This document shows positions 5,291 through 36,334 of a stretch of DNA of 45,835 nt, piece by piece. The notes beneath the pieces are model-generated. The model ran no database searches. It was given only the letters and a program-made list of their open reading frames with translations, and was not told the DNA's origin. The stretch comes from Patescibacteria group bacterium (lineage in GTDB: Bacteria; Patescibacteriota; Patescibacteriia; UBA9934; GWF2-40-263). Position 1 is the stretch's first letter; the number at the start of each line of letters is the position of its first letter. Location: contig JBAZTR010000001.1 of the NCBI GenBank assembly GCA_041661745.1, positions 252,471 through 298,305 on the forward strand, in the 5' to 3' direction. A program made the translations under genes and the position numbers.

Positions 5291-8254
5291 TTATTTTATC
5301 GGTAATAAAACATAAAAAGTTGTTCCTTTACCCTCGATCGATTTAAACCAAATTTTTCCCTTATGCCGTTCCACAATATTCTTAGCAATATAAAGCCCCA
5401 GGCCGGTTCCGGTTTCCGTACCCATAATATTATCGGCTCGGAAAAATCTTTGGAAAACCTTATTTTGTTGATGTTTGGGAATACCGACACCGTGATCGGA
5501 ACAAGAAAAAACCACTTCTTTTTCCTTAAGTTCACAGTCAACTTTTATTATACTCTTTTCTGGCGAATACTTTATGGCATTACTAACAATATTTTGAAAA
5601 ACTTGAGAAATTTTTTCACGGTCAATCGAGACAATCAAATGCGGCGGACAACCTTCTTCTTCGATTATTTTAATTTTCTTGCTTTCCGCCATTCCCTCTA
5701 GGTTAACTATACCCTCCCTTATTATCTTCATCAGATCTTCTTTTTTGTTTACTATTCTAAACTTTTCGGAGCTATCAATGTGCGCGACACTTAACAGGTC
5801 ATCAACTAATTTAACCATTCGTTCGTTACTTAAATGAACTTGCTGCAAAAAATCGGTTTGTTTTTCCGTAAGAGCTCCGGCTTTTTTGTTTAACAAGAGC
5901 TCGGTAAACCATTTAATTCCGGTCAATGGCGTGCGCAATTGATGCGAGGCCGTGGAAATAAAATCGGTTTTCAGTTTATCCAATTCTTTAGCCTTCGAGA
6001 TATCACGAATCACCGCCATGGAAGCCGGTTTATTTTCAAACATTATCATTGAAGCGTTGGCCTCAACCGGAATTCTTTTACCAGATTTAGATAAAAGATC
6101 GAATTGATATATTGATTCAAGGTGTTCACCGCGCTGACGTCGACGATTTCTGTCTAAAACAAACTTCCGATATTCAGGAGCAATAAATGATAAAATTGAA
6201 CGATTGCGGGCTTCCTCCACTGAAGTTTCGGCCATCTCTGCCAAAACATGGTTTGCAAACCTAACTTTACCATCACTAATTATTACCACCCCATCGTTGC
6301 TGCCTTCGACCAAGTTTAAATATTTTTCCTCGCTCTCTTTTAATTTTTCTTGGATTTTTTTGTATTCAGTAATATCGGTTTCCACCCCGTTCCAACGAGT
6401 CGTCCCGTCTAAAAGCTTGGTCGGCGTGGAAATAAAATAAGACCACCTGACCTTTTTGTTTGGGCCAATAACCCTGACTTCGGTTTTAAAGTTGGAATAT
6501 TTTTTTTGGGCTTGCTCTTCTTCTCTAAAAACTCGATCTCGGTCATCTTTATGAACTCGGTCATAAATCAACGCAGAATTTTTTATACCCTGAGCCGGAG
6601 AAATGCCGTAAAAACTTCTGACCGTGTCGCTCAAATAAGTAAAGGCTCTTTTACCGTTTTTTTGTCTAATAATCTGATAAACCATGCTCAAAGGCAAACT
6701 GTTGTTAATGGTCCGGAGAAGCTCTTCGTTCCTCTCTATCTTTTCTTCGGCTTTCTTTCTTTCGGTTATGTCTTCCATCGAACCATACATTACCACAGTC
6801 TTTCCATTTACTCCTTTCACAAAAATCCCGCGGTCTTCTATTTCAATATAGTTTCCGTTTTTTTGGCGAAAACGATAATTGGTTTCAAACTTCCCTATTT
6901 TTTTTAAAGCCTTGGCCAACGTCTCGTTGACTCTTTTACGATCGTCGGGATGGATCATGGCTGACCAATCTTTAATACTATTTTTAGCAAATTCTTTTTC
7001 GGTATACCCGGTATTTTTTTTAATTGCCCCGGCCCAAAAAATTTTGCCAGATTTCACGTCGTATTCATAAATTAATTGTCCGGTTTTTTCGGCGGTAATA
7101 CGATAGCGTTTTTCATTTTTACTCAAGATTTGTTCATTTACCCGTCTTTCAGTCACATCGCGTAAAATACAGATAATGGAAACAACCTTTTTATCTTCAA
7201 TTTTTGGCACGGCGTTACCCTCAAAAAAAATCTTTTTACCGTCGCGTTTTCGGTAAGTAATCTCCATGCGACTCAAACTTTTTCCTCTCAAAATATTGGC
7301 AAACTTTTCTTGGCAGTGTTTCAAAGTATCCGGATCAATAAGATCTTTAAAAACATTTAACTTTAAGGAAGCTTGTCGGCTATAACCCATTTTTGTTAAC
7401 CAAGCATGATTAACAAACAACACCTGACCATTCGGCGATAAAATCTGAATGGCGTCACTGGTTTTTTCAACGATCGAGGAATATTTTTCGTTTGATTCGT
7501 TTCTTTTTTTTAAGGCATCATTGTAATCGGTAACATCTTCACCGGAACTTAAAGAAGCGTAAATTTTTCCTGTCGCATCTTTCAAAACCGTATTGCGCCA
7601 GGCAATCATTCGTTCTTGACCCTTGGCGTTAAGAATCGGATTTTTAAAAGAATCTACAGACTTAACCTGGCCATTTATAACTTTTTTAAAGACAACCTTG
7701 GTTTGTTTACGAAACCTGATCGGAATAAAATTATCGAACCAATTTTTACCGATTATCTTTTCTCTTTTATACCCCAATATTTCACAACCTTTTCTATTTA
7801 TCATTGTCACCTTACCGCTATTGTCTATTGCCACCATCATTACCCCGGAGACTTGCAGATATTCAAAAAGTTGATTTCTTTCTTTTGTTAACTCGTTTTC
7901 AATTTTTTTGTGATGAGAAATATCTCTAGCTAAGGCTAGAATCAATTTCTTTCTGCTTAAACTAACCAATTTAAAATCAACTTCGACCGGAACCAAAGTG
8001 CCATCCCGGCGCTTACTAAAAGCCTCGATCGAAATCTCTTTTTTTCTTAAAAGTTCCTTAGATAATTTGGAATGTTTAGCTATCGCTTTGGCCAGCACCA
8101 AATCTTTAATCGTCAATTGTAACAACTCGGCTTTTTTATATCCCAACAGCTTGGTGGCCGCGGTGTTGCAATCTAAAATTTTTCCATTCAGGTCCTCGAT
8201 AAAAATAGCTTCAGGGCTTTGACCAAAAAGTTGAGCAAATAATTGATTATCCAT
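5291..8254 (-). CDS. Cytoplasmic multi-PAS sensor histidine kinase
   Basis: Repeated PAS/PAC modules. H-box FISTASHQLRTPLT. HATPase_c motifs NAIKYSP, DHGVGIP, GTGLGLYIAKNIVERHKGKIW. No obvious TM segment. Confidence 0.9.
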   Translation of the reverse strand: MDNQLFAQLFGQSPEAIFIEDLNGKILDCNTAATKLLGYKKAELLQLTIKDLVLAKAIAKHSKLSKELLRKKEISIEAFSKRRDGTLVPVEVDFKLVSLSRKKLILALARDISHHKKIENELTKERNQLFEYLQVSGVMMVAIDNSGKVTMINRKGCEILGYKREKIIGKNWFDNFIPIRFRKQTKVVFKKVINGQVKSVDSFKNPILNAKGQERMIAWRNTVLKDATGKIYASLSSGEDVTDYNDALKKRNESNEKYSSIVEKTSDAIQILSPNGQVLFVNHAWLTKMGYSRQASLKLNVFKDLIDPDTLKHCQEKFANILRGKSLSRMEITYRKRDGKKIFFEGNAVPKIEDKKVVSIICILRDVTERRVNEQILSKNEKRYRITAEKTGQLIYEYDVKSGKIFWAGAIKKNTGYTEKEFAKNSIKDWSAMIHPDDRKRVNETLAKALKKIGKFETNYRFRQKNGNYIEIEDRGIFVKGVNGKTVVMYGSMEDITERKKAEEKIERNEELLRTINNSLPLSMVYQIIRQKNGKRAFTYLSDTVRSFYGISPAQGIKNSALIYDRVHKDDRDRVFREEEQAQKKYSNFKTEVRVIGPNKKVRWSYFISTPTKLLDGTTRWNGVETDITEYKKIQEKLKESEEKYLNLVEGSNDGVVIISDGKVRFANHVLAEMAETSVEEARNRSILSFIAPEYRKFVLDRNRRRQRGEHLESIYQFDLLSKSGKRIPVEANASMIMFENKPASMAVIRDISKAKELDKLKTDFISTASHQLRTPLTGIKWFTELLLNKKAGALTEKQTDFLQQVHLSNERMVKLVDDLLSVAHIDSSEKFRIVNKKEDLMKIIREGIVNLEGMAESKKIKIIEEEGCPPHLIVSIDREKISQVFQNIVSNAIKYSPEKSIIKVDCELKEKEVVFSCSDHGVGIPKHQQNKVFQRFFRADNIMGTETGTGLGLYIAKNIVERHKGKIWFKSIEGKGTTFYVLLPIK

Positions 8255-13238: not shown

Positions 13239-14066
13239 CTAAATCGTTAAAAAGGTCAAAAAGACACCAACAACAATAAATATCACCACCGACCAGTTAG
13301 CCAAGACATCGACGTTTCTTGTAAGCGAATCAATAAAGGTGGTTTGAACCCTAAAAAACTGCTCGTTGGAAAACTCGCTTCTGGTTTGATTTGCTTCATC
13401 ATATGTAAAAACCAAAACCGAATGGTTGCCTTCGTTTAATTTAAATTCTTTTTGTTGATGCTCGATTTGCCAGGTTCCGTCCGATTTAACCTGTTCTGTA
13501 TAAACAGCGGTCTGCTGACCGGAAAGCATTAAAACCACGGTTGAGCCGGATTGGCCGACTCCATAAAAAACATAATCCTGACCATTGCTTTTTCTTATTC
13601 CGGTTAATTCCGGGACAGCCAAATCAAAAACAATCGAAGCAGCTGGTATACCGGCTTCAACCGTTAGCGCCTGGGTATCAACCGCCAAAATATCAGGCGG
13701 CCGAAGTTCCGAAACACTATATAACTTAAGTGGCCCAAAAACCGTTGGAACAACAAGAATTAGTAATAATTTCATCAACCAAATAAACAAAATAATACTC
13801 ACGCCGGTCAAGGTAATAACGCGGCGCAAGTTATAATCAAAAGACACCTTGGCATAGCTGCCTTTTTCTTCAAAAAAAGCCACAACCGATTGCGGCTTTA
13901 AACTAAAATAAAGCGGTAAAGACACGCCTGCCAACAAAATTTCTAAAACGACTAGTTCTAAAACTACCCCTACAGCCCTTATTCCCTCGGTCACAATTAC
14001 CTGTTGTTTTTTTTGATAGATGCGATTAGATATTCGCAGTACCAACCCCAACCAGGCGGACCTCAT
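13239..14066 (-). CDS. Membrane protein, short paralogue of the giant protein termini
   Basis: It shares the N-terminal TM pair (VSLPLYF / VSLPLFF) and the C-terminal Ig-like module plus TM anchor (DGTWQIEHQ...GNHSV vs KGDWQIAHS...GDHTI) with the 1651-aa protein. Confidence 0.7.
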   Translation of the reverse strand: MRSAWLGLVLRISNRIYQKKQQVIVTEGIRAVGVVLELVVLEILLAGVSLPLYFSLKPQSVVAFFEEKGSYAKVSFDYNLRRVITLTGVSIILFIWLMKLLLILVVPTVFGPLKLYSVSELRPPDILAVDTQALTVEAGIPAASIVFDLAVPELTGIRKSNGQDYVFYGVGQSGSTVVLMLSGQQTAVYTEQVKSDGTWQIEHQQKEFKLNEGNHSVLVFTYDEANQTRSEFSNEQFFRVQTTFIDSLTRNVDVLANWSVVIFIVVGVFLTFLTI

Positions 14067-16086: not shown

Positions 16087-18573
16087 TTAAAAAGTTACAC
16101 TTAGTGTTCCCTTGTTCTGATTACCAATGGAAAAGGTCATGGTAAGAGTGTAACCGACTTTCATCATCGTCAGTTGCCACGTGTTCGAATCGTAAGTGGT
16201 GTACCCAAGATCCTCAAGATACGCCTGAACCGCCGCCATGTCGCCTTCTGTGACGACGCGACTGAAAACATAGTCAAGAGAAAAACCGCCCATATTATCC
16301 CTTAATTTAACCTCGTTATTAAAAACTTCATTTAGACCGGGCAAGAGGTCTTCGTCAACCGCCTGGCTTTTGGCGTTTGTCGTTTCCACTGGTATGACAT
16401 CATCATAATTTATTTGCGCCCAAGTTTTAGTTTCAGTGGTCGTACCCGGTGTAGGAACTTCGGCCAAGAACGAGCCACCCTTTGCAACGCCTGTCGAAGC
16501 GGCAGGAGCAACAAGGTTAGCAACCGTGGCCGTATGGTTTGGGACGGCCGGCGTTGGAGCTTCATCGACCTGAAAGGCAAAATCTTCAAAAGTTACTGGC
16601 AAATCGTGAGCTACGACGTATTCACTGACATCCGCAGTTGTAAATGTCGAATAATCTTCAATCCAATCAGCACCGCCAGAGGCCTCCCCGTTTATATCCA
16701 GTTTAATCAAAATCGCGTCCTGATAATAAATATTTTCGCCAAAACGAACCGTGGCCACTTCGGGCGTGATGTAATAACCGGAAATTGCCACCCCGCCGTC
16801 GGCCGTCGACTCGAGATCTTGCGGATCAATATAATCAACTCCGCCAATTTCTTTTGACCAAATAACATTAAAGTCTTCGTCGGTTTTGATTAAAAAAGCG
16901 CCGGAAGAGTAAAAAAATGAAAGATATTTATCCGGATCATCCAAATACTCATCAAAATGTTCGCTGCCGACATAATCTTTTGACATTATGACAAAATTTC
17001 CGTCAGTGGTTTTGACAGCGTAAAGTTGATTTTCTCTTTTTTGAATATCGCTATCAAGGCTTTTAACCCAAAGCAAATTACCATCACTGTCAAACTTGGC
17101 GGCAGCCAGGTCGATATCTGTGGATATTGTAAAAGTCGCGTAAGTTCCTTGAGTAATTAAGTCGCTAAAAAATCCGAAAGTAATATAGCCACCATCAGAA
17201 GTCGTCTCGACATCTTGAAAATCACCGGCGGTTATCCGCATGGTTGTGTAGCCCAAATCAAAGGTGCCATCGGCGTTAGGAACAGCATTTAAATACTGCT
17301 GGGAAACCGCTTCCAAATCTTTTTCCCAAATAATATTCAAATTACTGTCCGTTTTAACCATGGTGGACATGGACGAAGACATAAAACCATCATCCTCAGG
17401 CGATTCGGCTTGACCGATCATAATATAACCGTCTGAAGTTGGTCTGATAATAAACGGATCGGTGTAAAGGGAACTTTTTATAAAACTGGTTTTTTTAGTC
17501 CATTCCCTTTCGCCATCGGCAGTATATTTTACCAGCACGTAATTTTTATACGCATCAACCGGCTCGGAACAATTGCACAACTGATCGACCTTAAGAGAAA
17601 CCATAAAACCGCCGTCGTTTGTTTTAAAAACCTGATCAACCGCGTCTGTGCCATAGTCGCCAATCATTTTGGTCCAAATATGGTTGCCGTCTTTATCAAA
17701 TTTGGTTATATAAACATCGTACCAATTTTCTTTATTTTCGCCGTATTCGTCGTCGGTAAAACCAATAAGATCACCGACGGCAATTATACTGCCGTCTGAC
17801 AGCTCGATTATTTCCTTGCCGTTTTCAGAGCCGTACGGAGTGGCCATTGGATCAGTGGTGTACTCAAACGACTGGAAAAGTCTTGACCAAACAACCTTGC
17901 CGTTAGAATCTGTTTTAAGAAAAAAACCTTCGGGCGGAAAGAAAGGGTTTAAATCGTCGGTTTGTCCGTTTAAAAGATATCCACCGTCTTTGGTCGGCCA
18001 AACGCCGCCGGCTTGAGTCGTCACATCCACTCGATAATGGCTAATAAAAGTCGTACTTTGACCAGAAGACGACGAAACGTCGTCAGAAGACGGAATAGTG
18101 GCCAAATCTGAATCAGTAATACCCAAACTCAAAAACCTCATGATGGTGTAAGCCGAATCGCCATCTTTCATATAAATTCTGTAGCAAGTATCCGGGTCAA
18201 CGTACCAAGCCTCCCCGTGCTGTTCGACCTGAAGTAAAATTTTACCTTTCACACTGTTAGCTAAGGAATGAGAATAACAGACATTACCAACCGAATTGGC
18301 CGCGGTCGTGTCATCGACTAATGGAATGGCAGCTAAATTAGCGTCAGTGATTCCCAAACCAAAATTTCGCATCATTTGATAAGCCACAGCGCCATCCTCC
18401 ATATAATATCGAACCGAATCCGCCGGATTAACATACCAAGCTTCGCCGTGTTGCTCGACCTGCAAAAGAATGCGACCACTTAGTTGATCGGCCAAAGTTT
18501 CGGCATGAACAGGATTTAAGACAATAAAACCCAAGGTCAAAAATAAACCAAGCCACAAAATATTTTTTTTCAT
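16087..18573 (-). CDS. Secreted repeat protein (two N-terminal ~55-aa repeats plus beta-propeller-like DGG/SDG repeats)
   Basis: Signal peptide MKKNILWLGLFLTLGFIVLNPVHA. Duplicated ILLQVEQHGEAWYV.P module. About 7 recurring T.DGG(Y/F)..G / W.K units. The track ORF (to 18798) runs into the high-GC cassette and that extension is not coding. An alternative TTG start at 18591 sits 6 nt after AAGGAG. Confidence 0.75.
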   Translation of the reverse strand: MKKNILWLGLFLTLGFIVLNPVHAETLADQLSGRILLQVEQHGEAWYVNPADSVRYYMEDGAVAYQMMRNFGLGITDANLAAIPLVDDTTAANSVGNVCYSHSLANSVKGKILLQVEQHGEAWYVDPDTCYRIYMKDGDSAYTIMRFLSLGITDSDLATIPSSDDVSSSSGQSTTFISHYRVDVTTQAGGVWPTKDGGYLLNGQTDDLNPFFPPEGFFLKTDSNGKVVWSRLFQSFEYTTDPMATPYGSENGKEIIELSDGSIIAVGDLIGFTDDEYGENKENWYDVYITKFDKDGNHIWTKMIGDYGTDAVDQVFKTNDGGFMVSLKVDQLCNCSEPVDAYKNYVLVKYTADGEREWTKKTSFIKSSLYTDPFIIRPTSDGYIMIGQAESPEDDGFMSSSMSTMVKTDSNLNIIWEKDLEAVSQQYLNAVPNADGTFDLGYTTMRITAGDFQDVETTSDGGYITFGFFSDLITQGTYATFTISTDIDLAAAKFDSDGNLLWVKSLDSDIQKRENQLYAVKTTDGNFVIMSKDYVGSEHFDEYLDDPDKYLSFFYSSGAFLIKTDEDFNVIWSKEIGGVDYIDPQDLESTADGGVAISGYYITPEVATVRFGENIYYQDAILIKLDINGEASGGADWIEDYSTFTTADVSEYVVAHDLPVTFEDFAFQVDEAPTPAVPNHTATVANLVAPAASTGVAKGGSFLAEVPTPGTTTETKTWAQINYDDVIPVETTNAKSQAVDEDLLPGLNEVFNNEVKLRDNMGGFSLDYVFSRVVTEGDMAAVQAYLEDLGYTTYDSNTWQLTMMKVGYTLTMTFSIGNQNKGTLSVTF

Positions 18574-18618
18574 ATTTTTTACGTTCAGCAAAAGTATACT
18601 CCTTTTAAAAACCCGAGA

Positions 18619-18654
18619 CAATAAAAATAACCCCCGGATCTTTCGATCCAAGGG
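18619..18654 (-). terminator. Terminator of high-GC cassette 1
   Basis: Minus strand reads cccttggatc-gaaa-gatccggggg (10-bp stem with two G-U pairs) followed by ttattttta. Confidence 0.7.
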
Positions 18655-18679
18655 TGATGAGGAGGTTCGGCGACGGTCG

Positions 18680-19306
18680 TCAGCACCACTCCTCGCTGTC
18701 GATGAAGTTGGCGATGACCGCCTGGGCGTAGCTCTTGCGCAGGAGGTGGCCCCACTCCGGATCGTCCGTGGCCGCCAGGTCGCGGACCAGGATGGCACGG
18801 AAGACCGCGAGGCCGACAGTGGTGATGATGAGCTGTCGCACGGCCTTGTTGTAGCCCCTGTGGTTGTGGTGAAGCCAGGCTACGGCCTCGGCCTCATCGA
18901 TCTCGTCGAGACACGCGACACCGTACAACCTGACCATCGTCTCCCGGATCGTGCGGCGGGCATCGTTGCCCAAGGGGACGCGGTCCAGAAGGTTGCGGAG
19001 TTCGTTCTGGCTGGGGTTAGACCCAAGGTTCGCGACCTCGATGTGTACCTGTTTCGGATCAAGAGGCTTCACATCGCAGTCGCAGTCCACCGGATCGCAA
19101 ACGTCGAATCCGCCGCGTCCGATGTAGCTTTCCAAATCCTTGAGGTTGGAGAGAAGAACGCGGCGGAAAGCGGCCAGCTGCTCGACGATTTCCCACGGGC
19201 AGCACAGAATCTTCCGGTAGAGGTTGAAACCGGGCCATTCTTCCTTGACGGTCCGAAACCGCTCGAGGTGGTTGTGGGCGTGGCTGGTGTGGTCAGTGCT
19301 GGTCAT
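18680..19306 (-). CDS. Hypothetical protein of high-GC cassette 1 (208 aa; weak DinB-like His motifs)
   Basis: ATG at 19306 lies 10 nt after GAGGAG. GC-rich third codon positions. Balanced amino-acid composition, unlike the R/V/G/A-rich antisense ORF. His cluster at the N-terminus (HTSHAHNHLERF) and WLHHNHRGY near the C-terminus resemble the DinB-fold HxxxHRGQ motif. No search was run. Confidence 0.6.
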   Translation of the reverse strand: MTSTDHTSHAHNHLERFRTVKEEWPGFNLYRKILCCPWEIVEQLAAFRRVLLSNLKDLESYIGRGGFDVCDPVDCDCDVKPLDPKQVHIEVANLGSNPSQNELRNLLDRVPLGNDARRTIRETMVRLYGVACLDEIDEAEAVAWLHHNHRGYNKAVRQLIITTVGLAVFRAILVRDLAATDDPEWGHLLRKSYAQAVIANFIDSEEWC

Positions 19307-22136: not shown

Positions 22137-22178
22137 GCGGGTATGGTTTAGTGGTAAAACGACTGCTTCCCAAGCAGT
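22137..22178 (+). pseudogene. tRNA-Gly(CCC)-like 5' fragment (acceptor 5' strand, D arm, anticodon arm) with no T arm or 3' acceptor strand
   Basis: gcgggta-tg-gtttagtggtaaaac-g-actgc-ttCCCaa-gcagt, then it runs straight into the GC-rich repeat. No tacccgc 3' strand follows. Confidence 0.6.
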
Positions 22179-22239
22179 AGTCGCGAGTCTCCCGCCTTTG
22201 GCGGGACCCCGCCAAAGCGAAGCGGCGGCGGGGCGATTC
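22179..22239 (+). repeat. tRNA-linked GC-rich multi-hairpin repeat, copy A
   Basis: agtcgcgagtctCCCGCCtttgGCGGGaCCCCGCCaaagcgaagcggcGGCGGGGc. Related copies lie at 22425-22480, 30881-30940 (minus) and 30986-31055 (minus). Confidence 0.8.
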
Positions 22240-22249
22240 TGTTTAAAAA

Positions 22250-22323
22250 GCGGGTATAGTACATCGGTAGTATATGACCTTCCCAAGGTCGAGAGACGGG
22301 TTCGACTCCCGTTACCCGCTCCA
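22250..22323 (+). tRNA. tRNA-Gly (anticodon CCC), CCA encoded
   Basis: Acceptor gcgggta/tacccgc, anticodon stem tgacc/ggtcg with loop ttCCCaa, T arm acggg-ttcgact-cccgt, then TCCA. Confidence 0.85.
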
Positions 22324-22420: not shown

Positions 22421-22568
22421 GTCGAGTCGCGGGTTTCCCGCCTCTGGCGGGACCCCGCCAAAACGAAGCGACGGCGGGGCAATCCCCGCCTTCGGCTCCA
22501 TCCCCCTTCGCCCAGCGAACGTGGGGCTTCGGAGGGATGTCCCCAACGAAGCTCGAACCTGTTTTTTG
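22421..22568 (+). ncRNA. Candidate structured RNA / repeat copy B plus a GC-rich extension downstream of tRNA-Thr
   Basis: Repeat core at 22425-22480, then further hairpins (ccccgcc-ttcgg..., catccc...gggatg, cccagcgaacgtgggg), ending in ctcgaacctgttttttg. No protein-like ORF. Not recognisable as tmRNA, SRP RNA, RNase P RNA or 6S RNA by eye. Confidence 0.35.
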
Positions 22569-29690: not shown

Positions 29691-29721
29691 AAATATTTCT
29701 TAAACATAATACAAGAAAACA

Positions 29722-29749
29722 GACAAAAAAGCCATCGATTGACGGCTTT
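29722..29749 (-). terminator. Terminator downstream of high-GC cassette 2
   Basis: Minus strand reads aaagccgtc-aatc-gatggcttttttg. Confidence 0.65.
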
Positions 29750-29821
29750 ATTGTTTAAGATAATTAAAAGGCCCCGGAGAATGAACTCCGAGACCAAAAC
29801 GAGAATAGCGGCTCGCGACGT

Positions 29822-30469
29822 CTACTCACCCAGCTCGTCGAGGGCCCGACGTGTGGTGTAGCGCGAGATGCCGAGCTTGCGACGCAGGCGCCGGACTTCG
29901 ACAACGGGCCGGCCAACACACTCGGCGATGACCGTGTCGGGCAGGCGGCCGAGAAAGACCTCGACCTTGTTCTCCCAGTTGTTGAAGTCCTCGAGGGCAT
30001 ACTCGATCCCGATCTGGGCGAAGGCCGCCCGGATGTTGCCGAAGTGCACGATGGCCGATCGGTAGATCCCGGCGTGCTGTCTCACGAGCTCCGAGGGACG
30101 GAGAGTCTCCTTCCCACGCAACCTCTCCAAGGTCTGGCAGTTGCAGTAGAAAGGGACCTCGACCCACGTTCCGTGCTGATCGGAACACTTCAACTTGGGA
30201 TCGAAGCGGAAACCGCAGCCGGTGCAGGCGGTGGTGAAGTCGTTGGGATCGTTGTTGAACCCGCGAAGGATCTCCGTCGGGGTCATCCTCCGAGAGCACT
30301 TCGGGCAGACTCCCTTGGGCTTGTACTGCTCGTTGCGGAGATCGCCGATCAGCTGCAGGCGAAGGCCGAAGATGTGCGCCTGGACCTGGTGGGCTCGCTG
30401 TGCCAGGGAGAGACGCGGCTCCAGTCTCTGTTCGTGCCGCAAACCAAGACCCATGGAAAGACTGGGCAT
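29822..30469 (-). CDS. Hypothetical protein of high-GC cassette 2 (215 aa; Cys4 zinc ribbon plus C-terminal HTH-like segment)
   Basis: ATG at 30469 lies 6 nt after GGAG. CPKC...CTGC knuckles. The C-terminal LPDTVIAECVGRPVVEVRRLRRKLGI looks like a helix-turn-helix. GC-rich third positions. The other frames and strand give R/P-rich nonsense. Confidence 0.6.
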   Translation of the reverse strand: MPSLSMGLGLRHEQRLEPRLSLAQRAHQVQAHIFGLRLQLIGDLRNEQYKPKGVCPKCSRRMTPTEILRGFNNDPNDFTTACTGCGFRFDPKLKCSDQHGTWVEVPFYCNCQTLERLRGKETLRPSELVRQHAGIYRSAIVHFGNIRAAFAQIGIEYALEDFNNWENKVEVFLGRLPDTVIAECVGRPVVEVRRLRRKLGISRYTTRRALDELGE

Positions 30470-30543
30470 GTTCAACTCCATTCAACGTTGATGAGGGGAT
30501 GCTACACGGCTCGTGTAGTAGAGTCTGCTTCAAGCAGCGTTTG

Positions 30544-30572
30544 AATCTAACAAAAAAAACAAAAAAAGTCAA
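30544..30572 (-). promoter_or_regulatory. Promoter of cassette 2
   Basis: Minus strand has TTGACT (30572-30567), a 17-nt spacer and TAGATT (30549-30544), with TGt upstream of the -10. It shares a ~25-nt block with the cassette 3 promoter. Confidence 0.55.
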
Positions 30573-30575
30573 GGA

Positions 30576-30610
30576 TAAACAAAAGACCCCCGTTGTAAAA
30601 CGGGGGTGGT
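30576..30610 (-). terminator. Hairpin terminator immediately upstream of the cassette 2 promoter
   Basis: Minus strand reads ccacccccg-ttttacaa-cgggggtcttttgttt. Confidence 0.65.
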
Positions 30611-30642
30611 AGATATGTTTAAAAAATACACTTACTAACAAG

Positions 30643-30768
30643 AAAAACCCTTTTAAATTTTTTCAGGACAAGGAACGGGTGTCAGACGAGGAGGCGTACC
30701 ATTTAGGTACGACGACGAAGTCAGACAGGACCCATGACGCAGTCCTGGGAAAATTTAGAAGGGTTTTT
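30643..30768 (-). other. ~126-nt long imperfect inverted-repeat element forming the trailer of tRNA-Lys (candidate sRNA or MITE-like element)
   Basis: Terminal inverted repeats aaaaaccctt (30643-30652) and aagggttttt (30759-30768). Internal caggac/gtcctg words (three copies), a gtacc-taaat-ggtac hairpin and a direct repeat gtctgac x2. Starts 3 nt after the CCA end of the tRNA. Confidence 0.4.
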
Positions 30769-30770
30769 CA

Positions 30771-30845
30771 TGGTGCGCTGGGAGGGGATCGGACCCTCGA
30801 CCTCGGGCTTAAAAGGCCCTCGCTCTACCACTGAGCTACCAGCGC
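30771..30845 (-). tRNA. tRNA-Lys (anticodon UUU), CCA encoded
   Basis: Reverse complement: gcgctgg-ta-gctcagtggtagagc-g-agggc-ctTTTaa-gcccg-aggtc-gaggg-tccgatc-ccctc-ccagcgc-ACCA. Confidence 0.85.
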
Positions 30846-31072
30846 AAATTCTGGTACTGGTAGCGAAGTGGTAATTATACCACTGCCCCGCCGTCGTTGG
30901 ACTTTGGCGGGGTCCCGCCATAGGCCTCCGAAGGCGGGAAGCTACCAGCGCAAATTCTGGTACTGGTAGCGAAGTGGTAATTATACCACTGCCCCGCCGT
31001 CGTTGGACTTTGGCGGGACGAGGTCCACCGAAGTTCGCCTCGAACGAAGGTGGAAGCTACCAGCGCATATTG
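30835..31072 (-). repeat. Tandem repeat (106 + 115 + partial 17 nt) duplicating the tRNA-Lys 5' end, its leader, an extended -10 promoter and GC-rich repeat copies C and D
   Basis: A 77-nt block gctaccagcgcaaattctggtactggtagcgaagtggtaattataccactgccccgccgtcgttggactttggcggg is identical at 30835 and 30941. A third gctaccagcgca begins at 31056. Confidence 0.9.
30874..30882 (-). promoter_or_regulatory. Extended -10 promoter (TGgTATAAT) of tRNA-Lys, with a duplicate copy at 30980-30988
   Basis: Minus strand reads agTGgTATAAT. The hexamer ends 28 nt upstream of the tRNA 5' end. An identical copy lies 106 nt further upstream. Confidence 0.5.
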
Positions 31073-31196: not shown

Positions 31197-31337
31197 ATGG
31201 AGATGGGTACATGCGTCGGCTGTGGAGCCGAAGAAACCGAAATCAACGAAGATGGTTACTGTACCGACTGTGCCGCGCTTGAAGGTGAGGCAACAAAAGG
31301 TGAGAGTGACGAAGAAACCACCGAAGAAGAAGGTTAA
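31197..31337 (+). CDS. Small (46 aa) zinc-ribbon protein with an acidic tail
   Basis: MEMGTCVGCGAEETEINEDGYCTDCAALEGEATKGESDEETTEEEG has a CxxC-x12-CxxC pattern. It is bracketed by a consensus promoter and a strong terminator. It is below the size cutoff of the ORF track, and the listed antisense ORF 31185..31424 is spurious. No SD. Confidence 0.5.
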   Translation: MEMGTCVGCGAEETEINEDGYCTDCAALEGEATKGESDEETTEEEG

Positions 31338-35383: not shown

Positions 35384-36334
35384 CTAGGCAGGAAGGACTG
35401 CCAGGATACGGAAAGCGAGATGGCCGACCCCGCCATCACTCCAGACCTTGTGAACAGCGGAAAGACCGCCTTCCTCAGAGTTACCAAAGACGAGACGGAA
35501 GCCGCGGTCGGAGTTGTTTTCACACCACTCCCAGTTCTTGATGGAACCGAGGTTGGGCAGGTTAGTGCCCAAGGCACGGTTGGCGAGGACGAAGAGGTTG
35601 CCACACCAGTTCATCTCCTCAACCGTGGGCAGACGAACAGTGTCGGAGGGTAGTCCCCAGACCTCGGCCAATTCTGTCAGCCGACCGTCGTGCAGGGTAC
35701 TCCAGTCCGTATTGGAGCAGCGCTGGAGATCAAGGAGCTTGGCCACCTTGTCGTCCGGGCCGTAGCTGACCAGGTCGTTCCAGTTGGGCTTGGGTCTTGT
35801 TTCGATCAGGATCCAGCAACCAAGCAAAGGGCGACGTTCGATCTCGCTAGGGTGTTTCAAGTTCTCGCCCCAGGCCGGGAAGATGTACTTGTCACCATGG
35901 CCGCTGCCGACCACCTGTTCGAGTTCTCCAGCCGGGCAGAAGACGGGGATGAGACCGAAGTCTACACAGGCTCGAGCTGTGGCCGAGGTGATGGTCGGAA
36001 ACTCCGGGAAACACATCTCCCAACCGTTGGCCTCGAGTGCATAGTTCCAGAAAGTCCGCGGGTTCAGGCCGCGGATAAGGAGCTCACCCTTGGCCGAAAG
36101 AGAGAGGAGCGGGATGGTTGGCACGGCCGTGAACGGGTCGGCGAGGAAGACTTCGAGGGCCTGGTGCGTCTCGTCCGGTGAGCCGTTGAGCCGCGCAGCG
36201 AGGCGTCTGACCAGAGGCCAGTTCTTTCCGAAGAACAGAGCCTGCACCACCTCACGAGAGAGGTGATTCGGGTCGTCGGCGGGAAGGTCCGCTCTTTCGA
36301 GCAGATCCCGGAACTGTCTGTGTGTCACGATCAT
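35384..36334 (-). CDS. Hypothetical protein of high-GC cassette 3 (316 aa; C-terminal part weakly FGE-sulfatase/DUF323-like)
   Basis: ATG at 36334 lies 5 nt after AGGAAGGAGA. GC-rich third positions. C-terminal motifs RLPTVEEMNW, GSIKNWEWC, GFRLVFG and LAFRI resemble RLPTEAEWEY / GNVWEW / RGGS / GFR of the FGE-sulfatase fold. No search was run. Confidence 0.6.
   Translation of the reverse strand: MIVTHRQFRDLLERADLPADDPNHLSREVVQALFFGKNWPLVRRLAARLNGSPDETHQALEVFLADPFTAVPTIPLLSLSAKGELLIRGLNPRTFWNYALEANGWEMCFPEFPTITSATARACVDFGLIPVFCPAGELEQVVGSGHGDKYIFPAWGENLKHPSEIERRPLLGCWILIETRPKPNWNDLVSYGPDDKVAKLLDLQRCSNTDWSTLHDGRLTELAEVWGLPSDTVRLPTVEEMNWCGNLFVLANRALGTNLPNLGSIKNWEWCENNSDRGFRLVFGNSEEGGLSAVHKVWSDGGVGHLAFRILAVLPA

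Follow-up and report, generated by a model that had tools for sequence, protein, structure and literature searches.

A GC-rich single-gene unit beside tRNA-Lys in a Patescibacteria genome, probably acquired horizontally and predicted to encode a zinc-ribbon/helix-turn-helix protein

A stretch of 45,835 nucleotides (nt) from a Patescibacteria group bacterium (GenBank assembly GCA_041661745.1, contig JBAZTR010000001.1, positions 252,471 to 298,305 of the forward strand), called the window below, carries a single gene for a protein of 215 amino acids (aa) between a tRNA-Lys gene and a Translin-like gene. The guanine-plus-cytosine (GC) content of this gene is far above that of its surroundings. 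How did it come to lie there, and what might its product do? A first-pass annotation, made from the sequence alone, had described an orphan zinc-ribbon and helix-turn-helix (HTH) protein, plausibly of phage or plasmid type, at a site typical of integrative elements. The explanation that we consider probable, with some reserve, is that of a horizontally acquired, moron-like transcription unit encoding a DNA-binding protein, likely a stand-alone accessory transcription regulator. This single-gene unit would have come from a GC-richer donor, most likely another bacterium of the Candidate Phyla Radiation (CPR), and would have landed in a changeable gap that extends from the 3' end of tRNA-Lys to just 5' of the promoter of the Translin-like gene.

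Foreign composition and comparison with relatives

The coding sequence (CDS), taken from the open reading frame (ORF) call, occupies positions 29822..30469 on the (-) strand and ends in TAG. Its GC content is 62.7% against 44% for the window, and its GC content at third codon positions (GC3) is 0.83, compared with 0.40–0.48 in 11 host genes (0.46 in the gene for ribosomal protein L27). The codon choice is opposite to that of the host: ATC is used in 97% versus 21% of cases, AAG in 92% versus 26% and TTA in 0% versus 21%, when the window's three GC-rich genes are pooled. The high GC content begins at about the transcription start and ends at the first terminator.

Two related genomes were recovered through MurG, namely L027, with a 76% identical MurG, and L032/L033, with 71% identity. 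The order MraY-FtsW-MurG ... tRNA-Lys ... Translin was kept in both; L032/L033 also have GT2 and MurD beyond Translin, and the L027 locus stops just after Translin. The 215-aa gene was absent from the tRNA-Lys–Translin gap of L027 and of L032/L033. The gap contained a 200-aa ORF in L027 and a 316-aa ORF in L032, both of which look like membrane proteins from their hydrophobic sequences, the latter perhaps an ion exchanger. While the tRNA-Lys itself was 100% identical in the window, L027 and L032, the similarity to the relatives stopped at the CCA end of the tRNA and resumed about 35 nt 5' of the Translin ATG. Because the similarity breaks off and resumes at these points, the approximately 1.05 kb from 29715 to 30770 is a changeable gap in which the gene is not ancestral. 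It should be added that the gene is deviant in composition and absent in the relatives, yet their gap holds other genes and is not an empty site. The proposal of the first-pass annotation that foreign DNA had entered at the tRNA 3' end agrees with these data (GC3 of 0.83 against about 0.42 in the host, absence in relatives, similarity ending at CCA), and ancestry of the gene beside tRNA-Lys, which the annotation had named as a finding against its own proposal, does not fit the other genes found in the gap of L027 and L032.

We therefore regard it as very improbable that the gene is a vertically inherited CPR housekeeping regulator whose high GC content reflects amino-acid or expression bias. 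The family is indeed widespread across CPR classes with one copy per locus, and its gene tends to be richer in GC3 than its neighbours in many genomes. Against vertical inheritance stand the missing gene in the syntenic gap of relatives with 71–76% identical MurG, the distance in GC3 from the L27 gene, the lack of conserved synteny in any of 20 family loci and the result of a pattern scan, of limited sensitivity, that found the gene in only 16 of 185,579 species genomes. On sequence grounds, the gene is best seen as foreign to this genome and derived from a GC-richer donor. One family member, on a Peregrinibacteria contig (L003), is a GC-rich copy that matches the composition of its neighbours, and GC-rich CPR donors are therefore plausible.

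An abrupt jump in composition might also suggest an assembly chimera or contamination. This is hardly credible here, since the junctions are identical in three independent assemblies, each made from a separate sample and each giving the identical protein and the same genes downstream of it. Single Logan contigs from two groundwater metagenomes, which belong to different studies, spanned the cassette and continued from the downstream genes into the tRNA, crossing both borders with zero differences. The depth of the cassette in these two metagenomes was 20.8 and 21.8, equal to that of the flanks (19–25).

The transcription unit, the tRNA gene and the loci of the family

The region from approximately 29770 to 30572 has the appearance of a self-contained transcription unit with promoter, leader, CDS and terminator, the promoter and terminator calls being consensus pattern matches. 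A sigma-70-type promoter, TTGACT-17-TAGATT with TG ahead of the -10 box, lies at 30544..30572 (-); five promoter-like sites were found in the 1.6-kb region, where 0.9 were expected. The 5' leader of about 68–74 nt (30470..30543, (-)) contains two short palindromes and the ribosome-binding site GGAG (30479-30476), 6 nt 5' of ATG 30469. Translation is less likely to begin at a second in-frame ATG (30481), which overlaps the Shine-Dalgarno sequence; the database entry of the protein likewise begins MPSLS. The intrinsic terminator of the cassette, a 10-bp GC-rich stem followed by a T run at 29770..29795 (-), coincides with the end of the GC-rich stretch. A second terminator-like hairpin lies 5' of the promoter of the Translin-like gene (29728..29749, (-)), and another, ACCCCCG-TTTTACAA-CGGGGGT with a T run, just upstream of the cassette promoter (30586..30607, (-)). 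The ORF with its TAG at 29822 and ATG at 30469, the GGAG and the promoter were thus found as first annotated. The two leader hairpins described there exist as palindromes (CTGCTT-G-AAGCAG at 30537-30525 and CTACACG-AGC-CGTGTAG at 30518-30502), but the 76-nt leader as a whole folds no better than shuffles (z = -1.4). We found no leader motif common to the leaders of the homologues.

The tRNA-Lys(UUU) gene is located at 30771..30845 (-) (ARAGORN; Rfam, 68.7 bits). It is on the same strand as the 215-aa gene and its 3' end is 301 nt from the ATG, in line with the distance of about 300 nt given before. Directly abutting the tRNA 3' end, a fold and inverted-repeat search identified an imperfect long hairpin at 30640..30772 (-), with a folding free energy of -53.6 kcal/mol (z = -9.5) and arms of 31 nt that are 87% complementary. 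This is the structured element first reported as 126 nt long; its presence was verified and its length corrected to 133 nt. It is apparently single-copy, Logan contigs pass through it without a break, and its sequence is not conserved in the relatives L027 and L032.

The genes on both sides of the gap are MraY, FtsW, MurG, the Translin-like gene and genes for GT2 glycosyltransferase, MurD and MurC, which form the cell-wall/division cluster of a genome assigned to CPR/Patescibacteria by its gene content and by the taxonomy of the homologues. The Translin-family gene (PF01997; 29115-29690, (-)) shows 70–85% identity to its counterparts in L027, L029 and L032, and a bacterial cell-wall/division cluster seems to us, presumably, an unusual place for it. 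Between MurG and tRNA-Lys there is also a small acidic ORF of 46 aa (31197-31337, (+)) with four cysteines (MEMGTCVGCG...CTDC), which is kept in L027 and L032.

Could the cassette be what remains of an integrative element at the 3' end of tRNA-Lys, whose integrase and att repeat have since been lost? The variable gap starts exactly at the tRNA CCA end, three related genomes have three different gap contents, and the composition is strongly atypical. In addition, a tRNA gene lies within 320 nt upstream in 4 of 22 family loci (Lys, Met, Arg and Ala), where about 2–3% would be expected (P of about 0.0006–0.003). The other 18 loci lack such a tRNA, however, and the gap of about 1 kb holds one gene: it contains no integrase- or recombinase-like ORF and no second plausible gene, all other ORFs of at least 40 aa being inside or overlapping the GC-rich CDS. 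The last 20 nt of tRNA-Lys are not repeated elsewhere in the window, even when up to three mismatches are allowed, and flanking direct repeats were found neither here nor in three tRNA-adjacent family loci (L003, L012, L019). The sole flanking repeat is a 15-nt inverted repeat that brackets the cassette (29694-29708 and 30614-30628). Such a repeat occurred by chance in about 4% of simulations, and one of its arms lies in the -10 region of the presumed promoter of the Translin gene, in a sequence partly common to L027; we treated it as chance and not as the ends of an element. The remnant proposed in the first-pass annotation is thus unlikely, in agreement with the absence of integrase that it had itself recorded, and the att-like direct repeats that it had recommended searching for, matching the tRNA-Lys 3' end, are not present in the window.

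Under the explanation that we prefer, horizontal gain of the single-gene unit, insertion would have taken place by illegitimate or homology-assisted recombination and not by a site-specific integrase, and the unit would have moved repeatedly between CPR lineages, often into gaps beside tRNAs. We also considered an integron gene cassette and rejected it: the unit has its own promoter and plain terminator hairpins, and neither attC nor IntI was found in the region of the window.

The protein is not the orphan it was first called. A word-indexed search gave 69 close homologues with 40–58% identity, nearly all of 200–220 aa and none with a Pfam domain. In a profile search of 1.84 billion representatives of clusters defined at 50% identity, 3318 matches had E<=1e-3, 1093 had E<=1e-10 and 214 had E<=1e-30. 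The labelled carriers are Magasanik-, Falkow-, Azam-, Taylor-, Staskawicz- and Peregrinibacteria, Parcubacteria and 'Saccharibacteria'. Two carrier loci are labelled otherwise, a 1.34-Mb contig as 'Gammaproteobacteria' and a 1.8-kb contig as 'Planctomycetales'; the former encodes a Type IV secretion pilin (PF18895) of a kind common in CPR genomes, and both labels are probably wrong. The family is therefore large, unnamed and, as far as its sequences indicate, apparently restricted to CPR. Its members share a fixed build of three predicted parts: an N-terminal helix together with a C4 zinc ribbon, a helical module that is conserved, and an HTH at the C-terminus.

The genes of the family sit among unrelated housekeeping genes, and no neighbour gene recurs across 20 loci. 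Every family locus that was read has a terminator-like hairpin 3' of the gene, and a -35 box of the TTGACA type is present upstream in about a third of them. In the Azambacteria loci L017 and L018, hairpin repeats of about 80 nt (CTCCCTTTCAGA...TTTCTGAAAGGGAG; for example 7849-7926 and 8653-8730 in L017) occur in many intergenic gaps, all on one strand, and appear to be an element of that lineage resembling repetitive extragenic palindromes. They flank the homologues there and were examined as element ends, which we rejected, the repeats being spread genome-wide between genes (8 copies in 9.9 kb).

With its order of promoter, gene and terminator, its deviant composition and its site between conserved genes, the unit recalls phage morons, and in two loci (L040 and L041) small unknown ORFs surround the homologue in runs. 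That the gene is a moron derived from a phage, what is left of a prophage, or a gene for defence or anti-defence is nevertheless quite improbable. No relative of the 215-aa protein was found in IMG/VR, among the INPHARED phages or in the PLSDB plasmids, so that the phage or plasmid type suggested at first was not upheld; PHROG and PADLOC gave no significant match to it; and the neighbours in L040 and L005 had no PHROG matches save one marginal (E=0.003). The flanks in the window are core cell-wall genes.

Architecture and possible function of the protein

The 215-aa protein is predicted to consist of a disordered N-terminus, a helix (residues 22-45), a C4 zinc ribbon, the motif FYC109xxQ112, a helical module with YRSAIxHxG and a C-terminal HTH (about 165-214). 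An AlphaFold2 model built on a 31-sequence alignment had a predicted local distance difference test score (pLDDT) of 90.9 and a predicted template modelling score of 0.83. In this model residues 1-20 are disordered and 22-45 form a long helix; both CxxC knuckles belong to a beta-hairpin domain into which a short helix (64-70) is inserted; the helical module covers 110-152, and the C-terminal helices are 165-172, 178-185, 189-198 and 206-214. When 116 diverse family members were compared, C58, C82, C85, Q112 and G174 were invariant, and C55, G70, F71, D77, T80, R88, F89, C109, S138, H142, G144, A149, Y157, L173, D178, I181, A182 and R196 were conserved in at least 90%.

The motifs CPKC (residues 55-58) and CTGC (82-85), which had been read as zinc knuckles from the start, are a predicted C4 zinc ribbon formed by C55, C58, C82 and C85. 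The prediction is well supported because the four cysteines are invariant or nearly so in the 116 homologues and predicted beta-hairpins surround them. Pfam zinc-ribbon models gave weak scores, with a best E of 0.0065, in 12 of 31 members.

The case for the C-terminal HTH came from two larger proteins found by profile. The C-terminal module has the consensus FLGRLPDTxIAxxxGVSxxxIRxxRRKLGI, and P0186 (891 aa) and P0202 (934 aa) contain 16–18 tandem copies of a module matching this stretch. P0186 scores above the Pfam cut-offs of HTH_28, HTH_23 and MerR_1, and P0202 above those of HTH_AsnC-type, HTH_17 and HTH_24. Because the matching modules reach these cut-offs, we take the C-terminal module, on the strength of its sequence, to be a probable HTH, predicted to be tri-helical, in support of the HTH of the first-pass annotation. 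Both large proteins consist almost wholly of HTH modules of about 40 aa (LGTMPDxxIAxxxGVSxxTVxxWRxRLGIP), and P0186 is also narrowly above the cut-off of the NCBIfam 'carph-isopro' domain. One family member, P0097, has one additional copy of the module. The C-terminal half modelled separately had a pLDDT of 90.2, and its top Foldseek matches, all weak, were nearly all HTH DNA binders: Mos1 transposase, a CRISPR-repeat-binding protein, DosR, NtrC and MarR-type proteins. Nothing reached E<0.001 when the whole model was compared with PDB and BFVD or the C-terminal half with PDB. Similarly, sequence searches of Pfam, NCBIfam, PHROGs, PADLOC and PDB with the query returned nothing significant, and the query profile gave only chance-level matches to PDB sequences, including a stretch resembling a forkhead recognition helix (E of about 1).

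Judged from its domains alone, the protein most likely binds DNA and has a regulatory role. The C-terminal HTH would provide sequence-specific binding, to which the middle helical module may contribute; the zinc ribbon could serve as a structural or contact module or as a scaffold, and the long N-terminal helix might mediate dimerisation. Two more specific candidates were rejected. A sigma-54 relationship, suggested by a Gln-rich N-terminus and an RpoN-box-like C-terminus, was tested with hhalign, which aligned 18 columns to an E. coli RpoN sequence at a probability of 1.1%. An MqsA-like zinc/HTH antitoxin was dismissed in view of the absence of any recurring neighbour across 20 loci and of a toxin partner.

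Several observations weigh against the picture of a horizontally acquired DNA-binding regulator. The 215-aa query itself falls below every Pfam HTH threshold. We could not find an operator motif common to 21 family upstream regions, in which only TTGACAAA and A/T runs recur, and in an expression search the gene appeared in no RNA run. The family gene is richer in GC3 than its neighbours in 15 of 19 loci, which could reflect a family-wide bias as well as transfer, and the nearest homologue is just 58% identical, so no donor was identified. Finally, a conserved polar cluster lies outside the HTH (C109 just before a helix, Q112, S138, H142 and D77). It would be compatible with a second metal site or with catalysis, and could mean an enzymatic or ligand-binding function and not plain regulation.

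If this cluster of Cys, Gln, Ser, His and Asp were an active site, the gene might encode an enzyme, or might be selfish and nuclease-like, in the manner of a homing endonuclease gene that stands free and has a zinc module and an HTH. The near invariance of the five residues speaks for this, as do the patchy distribution, the fact that the gene is always alone in varying contexts, the small GIY-YIG genes nearby in three loci and weak matches, including HNH and homing endonucleases in BFVD and HNH_5 in 2 of 31 members (E=0.029). We nevertheless consider such a function improbable. No histidine is conserved between the knuckles (C58-C82), so the HNH motif is absent and membership of the HNH homing endonucleases was rejected; Pfam, PHROGs and PADLOC give no significant nuclease family; near-identical copies are not known from elsewhere, identity with the best homologue being 58%; and the structural comparison gave no match at E<0.001. 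DNA binding with a likely regulatory role remains the function that we favour.

Other GC-rich units in the window and comparison with known systems

The window contains two further GC3-rich genes. A single-gene island with a GC3 of 0.83 (18683-19306, (-)) encodes a 208-aa protein that has no homologue in 5.8 billion proteins, and a TTGACA promoter and a terminator belong to the island itself; the long ORF called for the adjacent surface protein (16087-18798) extends spuriously into it. The other island (GC3 of 0.73; 35387-36334, (-), with an upstream region to 36505) encodes a 316-aa protein with only four homologues and is inserted between the genes for L27 (rpmA) and a NifU-like protein, where L027 and L032 lack it. 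Cassette 2, the unit that carries the 215-aa gene, and cassette 3, the island at 35387-36334, have in common a stretch of about 50 nt made up of terminator arm, T run and -35 box (TTATCCTTGACTTTTTT); in cassette 2 this is the hairpin at 30586-30607 with the -35 box, which resembles the stretch 5' of cassette 3. Two such matches were never obtained in shuffles. Similar promoter pairs are also found beside a homologue in another genome, and the shared stretch may for this reason be merely the consensus promoter of the host.

Taken together with the polar cluster, these units raise a bolder possibility, which we hold to be doubtful: an undescribed, CPR-specific class of DNA-binding factors with a second conserved site and a predicted overall structure that matched nothing significantly in the libraries searched, spread between CPR lineages as single-gene units running from promoter to terminator, which would land by preference in gaps beside tRNAs with no integrase, the three GC3-rich units of the window being traces of one such route of gene gain from an unsampled GC-rich donor. 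The acquisition of one moron-like unit for a probable regulator is the explanation to which we keep.

Other structured elements in the window are linked to tRNA genes. A GC-rich two-hairpin element with the core CCCGCC-TYTGG-CGGGACCCCGCCAAAR..CGNCGGCGGGG is present in four copies, always beside tRNA genes, and was mapped to 30846-31071 (-), 22208-22233 (+) and 22454-22479 (+) and, in L027, to 13787-13905; it matched no Rfam family. Upstream of tRNA-Lys it forms two tandem units with spacings of 106 and 115 nt, each of which opens with the first 11–12 nt of the tRNA (GCGCTGGTAGC) and has a cloverleaf-like fold (z of -7.0 and -3.9). L027 has one such unit and L032 none. At 22137-22250 (+), the GC-rich hairpin element is joined to a truncated copy resembling tRNA-Gly (Rfam tRNA, 34 bits), directly 5' of an intact pair of tRNA-Gly(CCC) and tRNA-Thr genes. 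In another CPR genome (L012, 8973-9100), tandem hairpin repeats of 67 nt follow straight after tRNA-Asp. There are thus hints that structured tandem repeats beside tRNA genes are common in CPR.

Few regulators are known from CPR/Patescibacteria, whose small genomes are for the most part unannotated. The locus described here is an entry to a CPR-restricted family of at least 214 clusters at 50% identity that has no Pfam, NCBIfam or PDB entry; with a confident model and conserved zinc and HTH modules, the family could reasonably be chosen for an initial biochemical study. The locus is also a clean case of single-gene horizontal gain in a CPR genome, with sharp borders, foreign codon usage and no integrase, and it bears on how streamlined CPR genomes gain genes. 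As far as its sequence can tell, the gene adds one uncharacterised member to the familiar horizontally acquired genes for zinc-ribbon/HTH DNA-binding proteins, and is in that sense fairly ordinary.

How does the unit compare with known systems? The phage 'moron' concept of Hendrix and colleagues reportedly refers to autonomous promoter-gene-terminator units inserted between conserved genes. The cassette is alike in that one gene, equipped with a sigma-70-type promoter and an intrinsic terminator of its own, stands between genes conserved in relatives and deviates in composition. It differs in being placed on a CPR chromosome among cell-wall genes, with no phage or prophage, and in that phage homologues were not found. 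With tRNA-linked genomic islands it shares variable DNA starting from a tRNA 3' end, atypical composition and different contents in relatives, whereas it lacks an integrase and an att direct repeat, and its gap, of only about 1 kb, contains a single gene.

The C4 module followed by a helical HTH is also the arrangement of other zinc-ribbon and HTH binders, such as the N-terminal regions of transposases (HTH_23/HTH_28, Zn_ribbon_IS1595) and the MqsA-type antitoxins, and the bipartite HTH of Mos1 transposase and the multi-HTH CRISPR-repeat-binding protein were among the weak structural matches of the C-terminal half. Unlike these, the 215-aa protein has no catalytic transposase domain and no partner toxin gene, and it differs from known zinc-ribbon and HTH proteins in that the query stays under the Pfam thresholds and the whole model has no significant match in PDB or BFVD.

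Lastly, current views of Patescibacteria are not overturned by this locus, as gene transfer in the phylum is already documented (PMC12455944). That paper does not appear to describe the family of the 215-aa gene or its locus; it records, for Patescibacteria, hundreds of islands and of genes transferred singly, for the most part between members of the phylum. A family confined to CPR whose gene is foreign in composition in the present genome fits such intra-phylum exchange.

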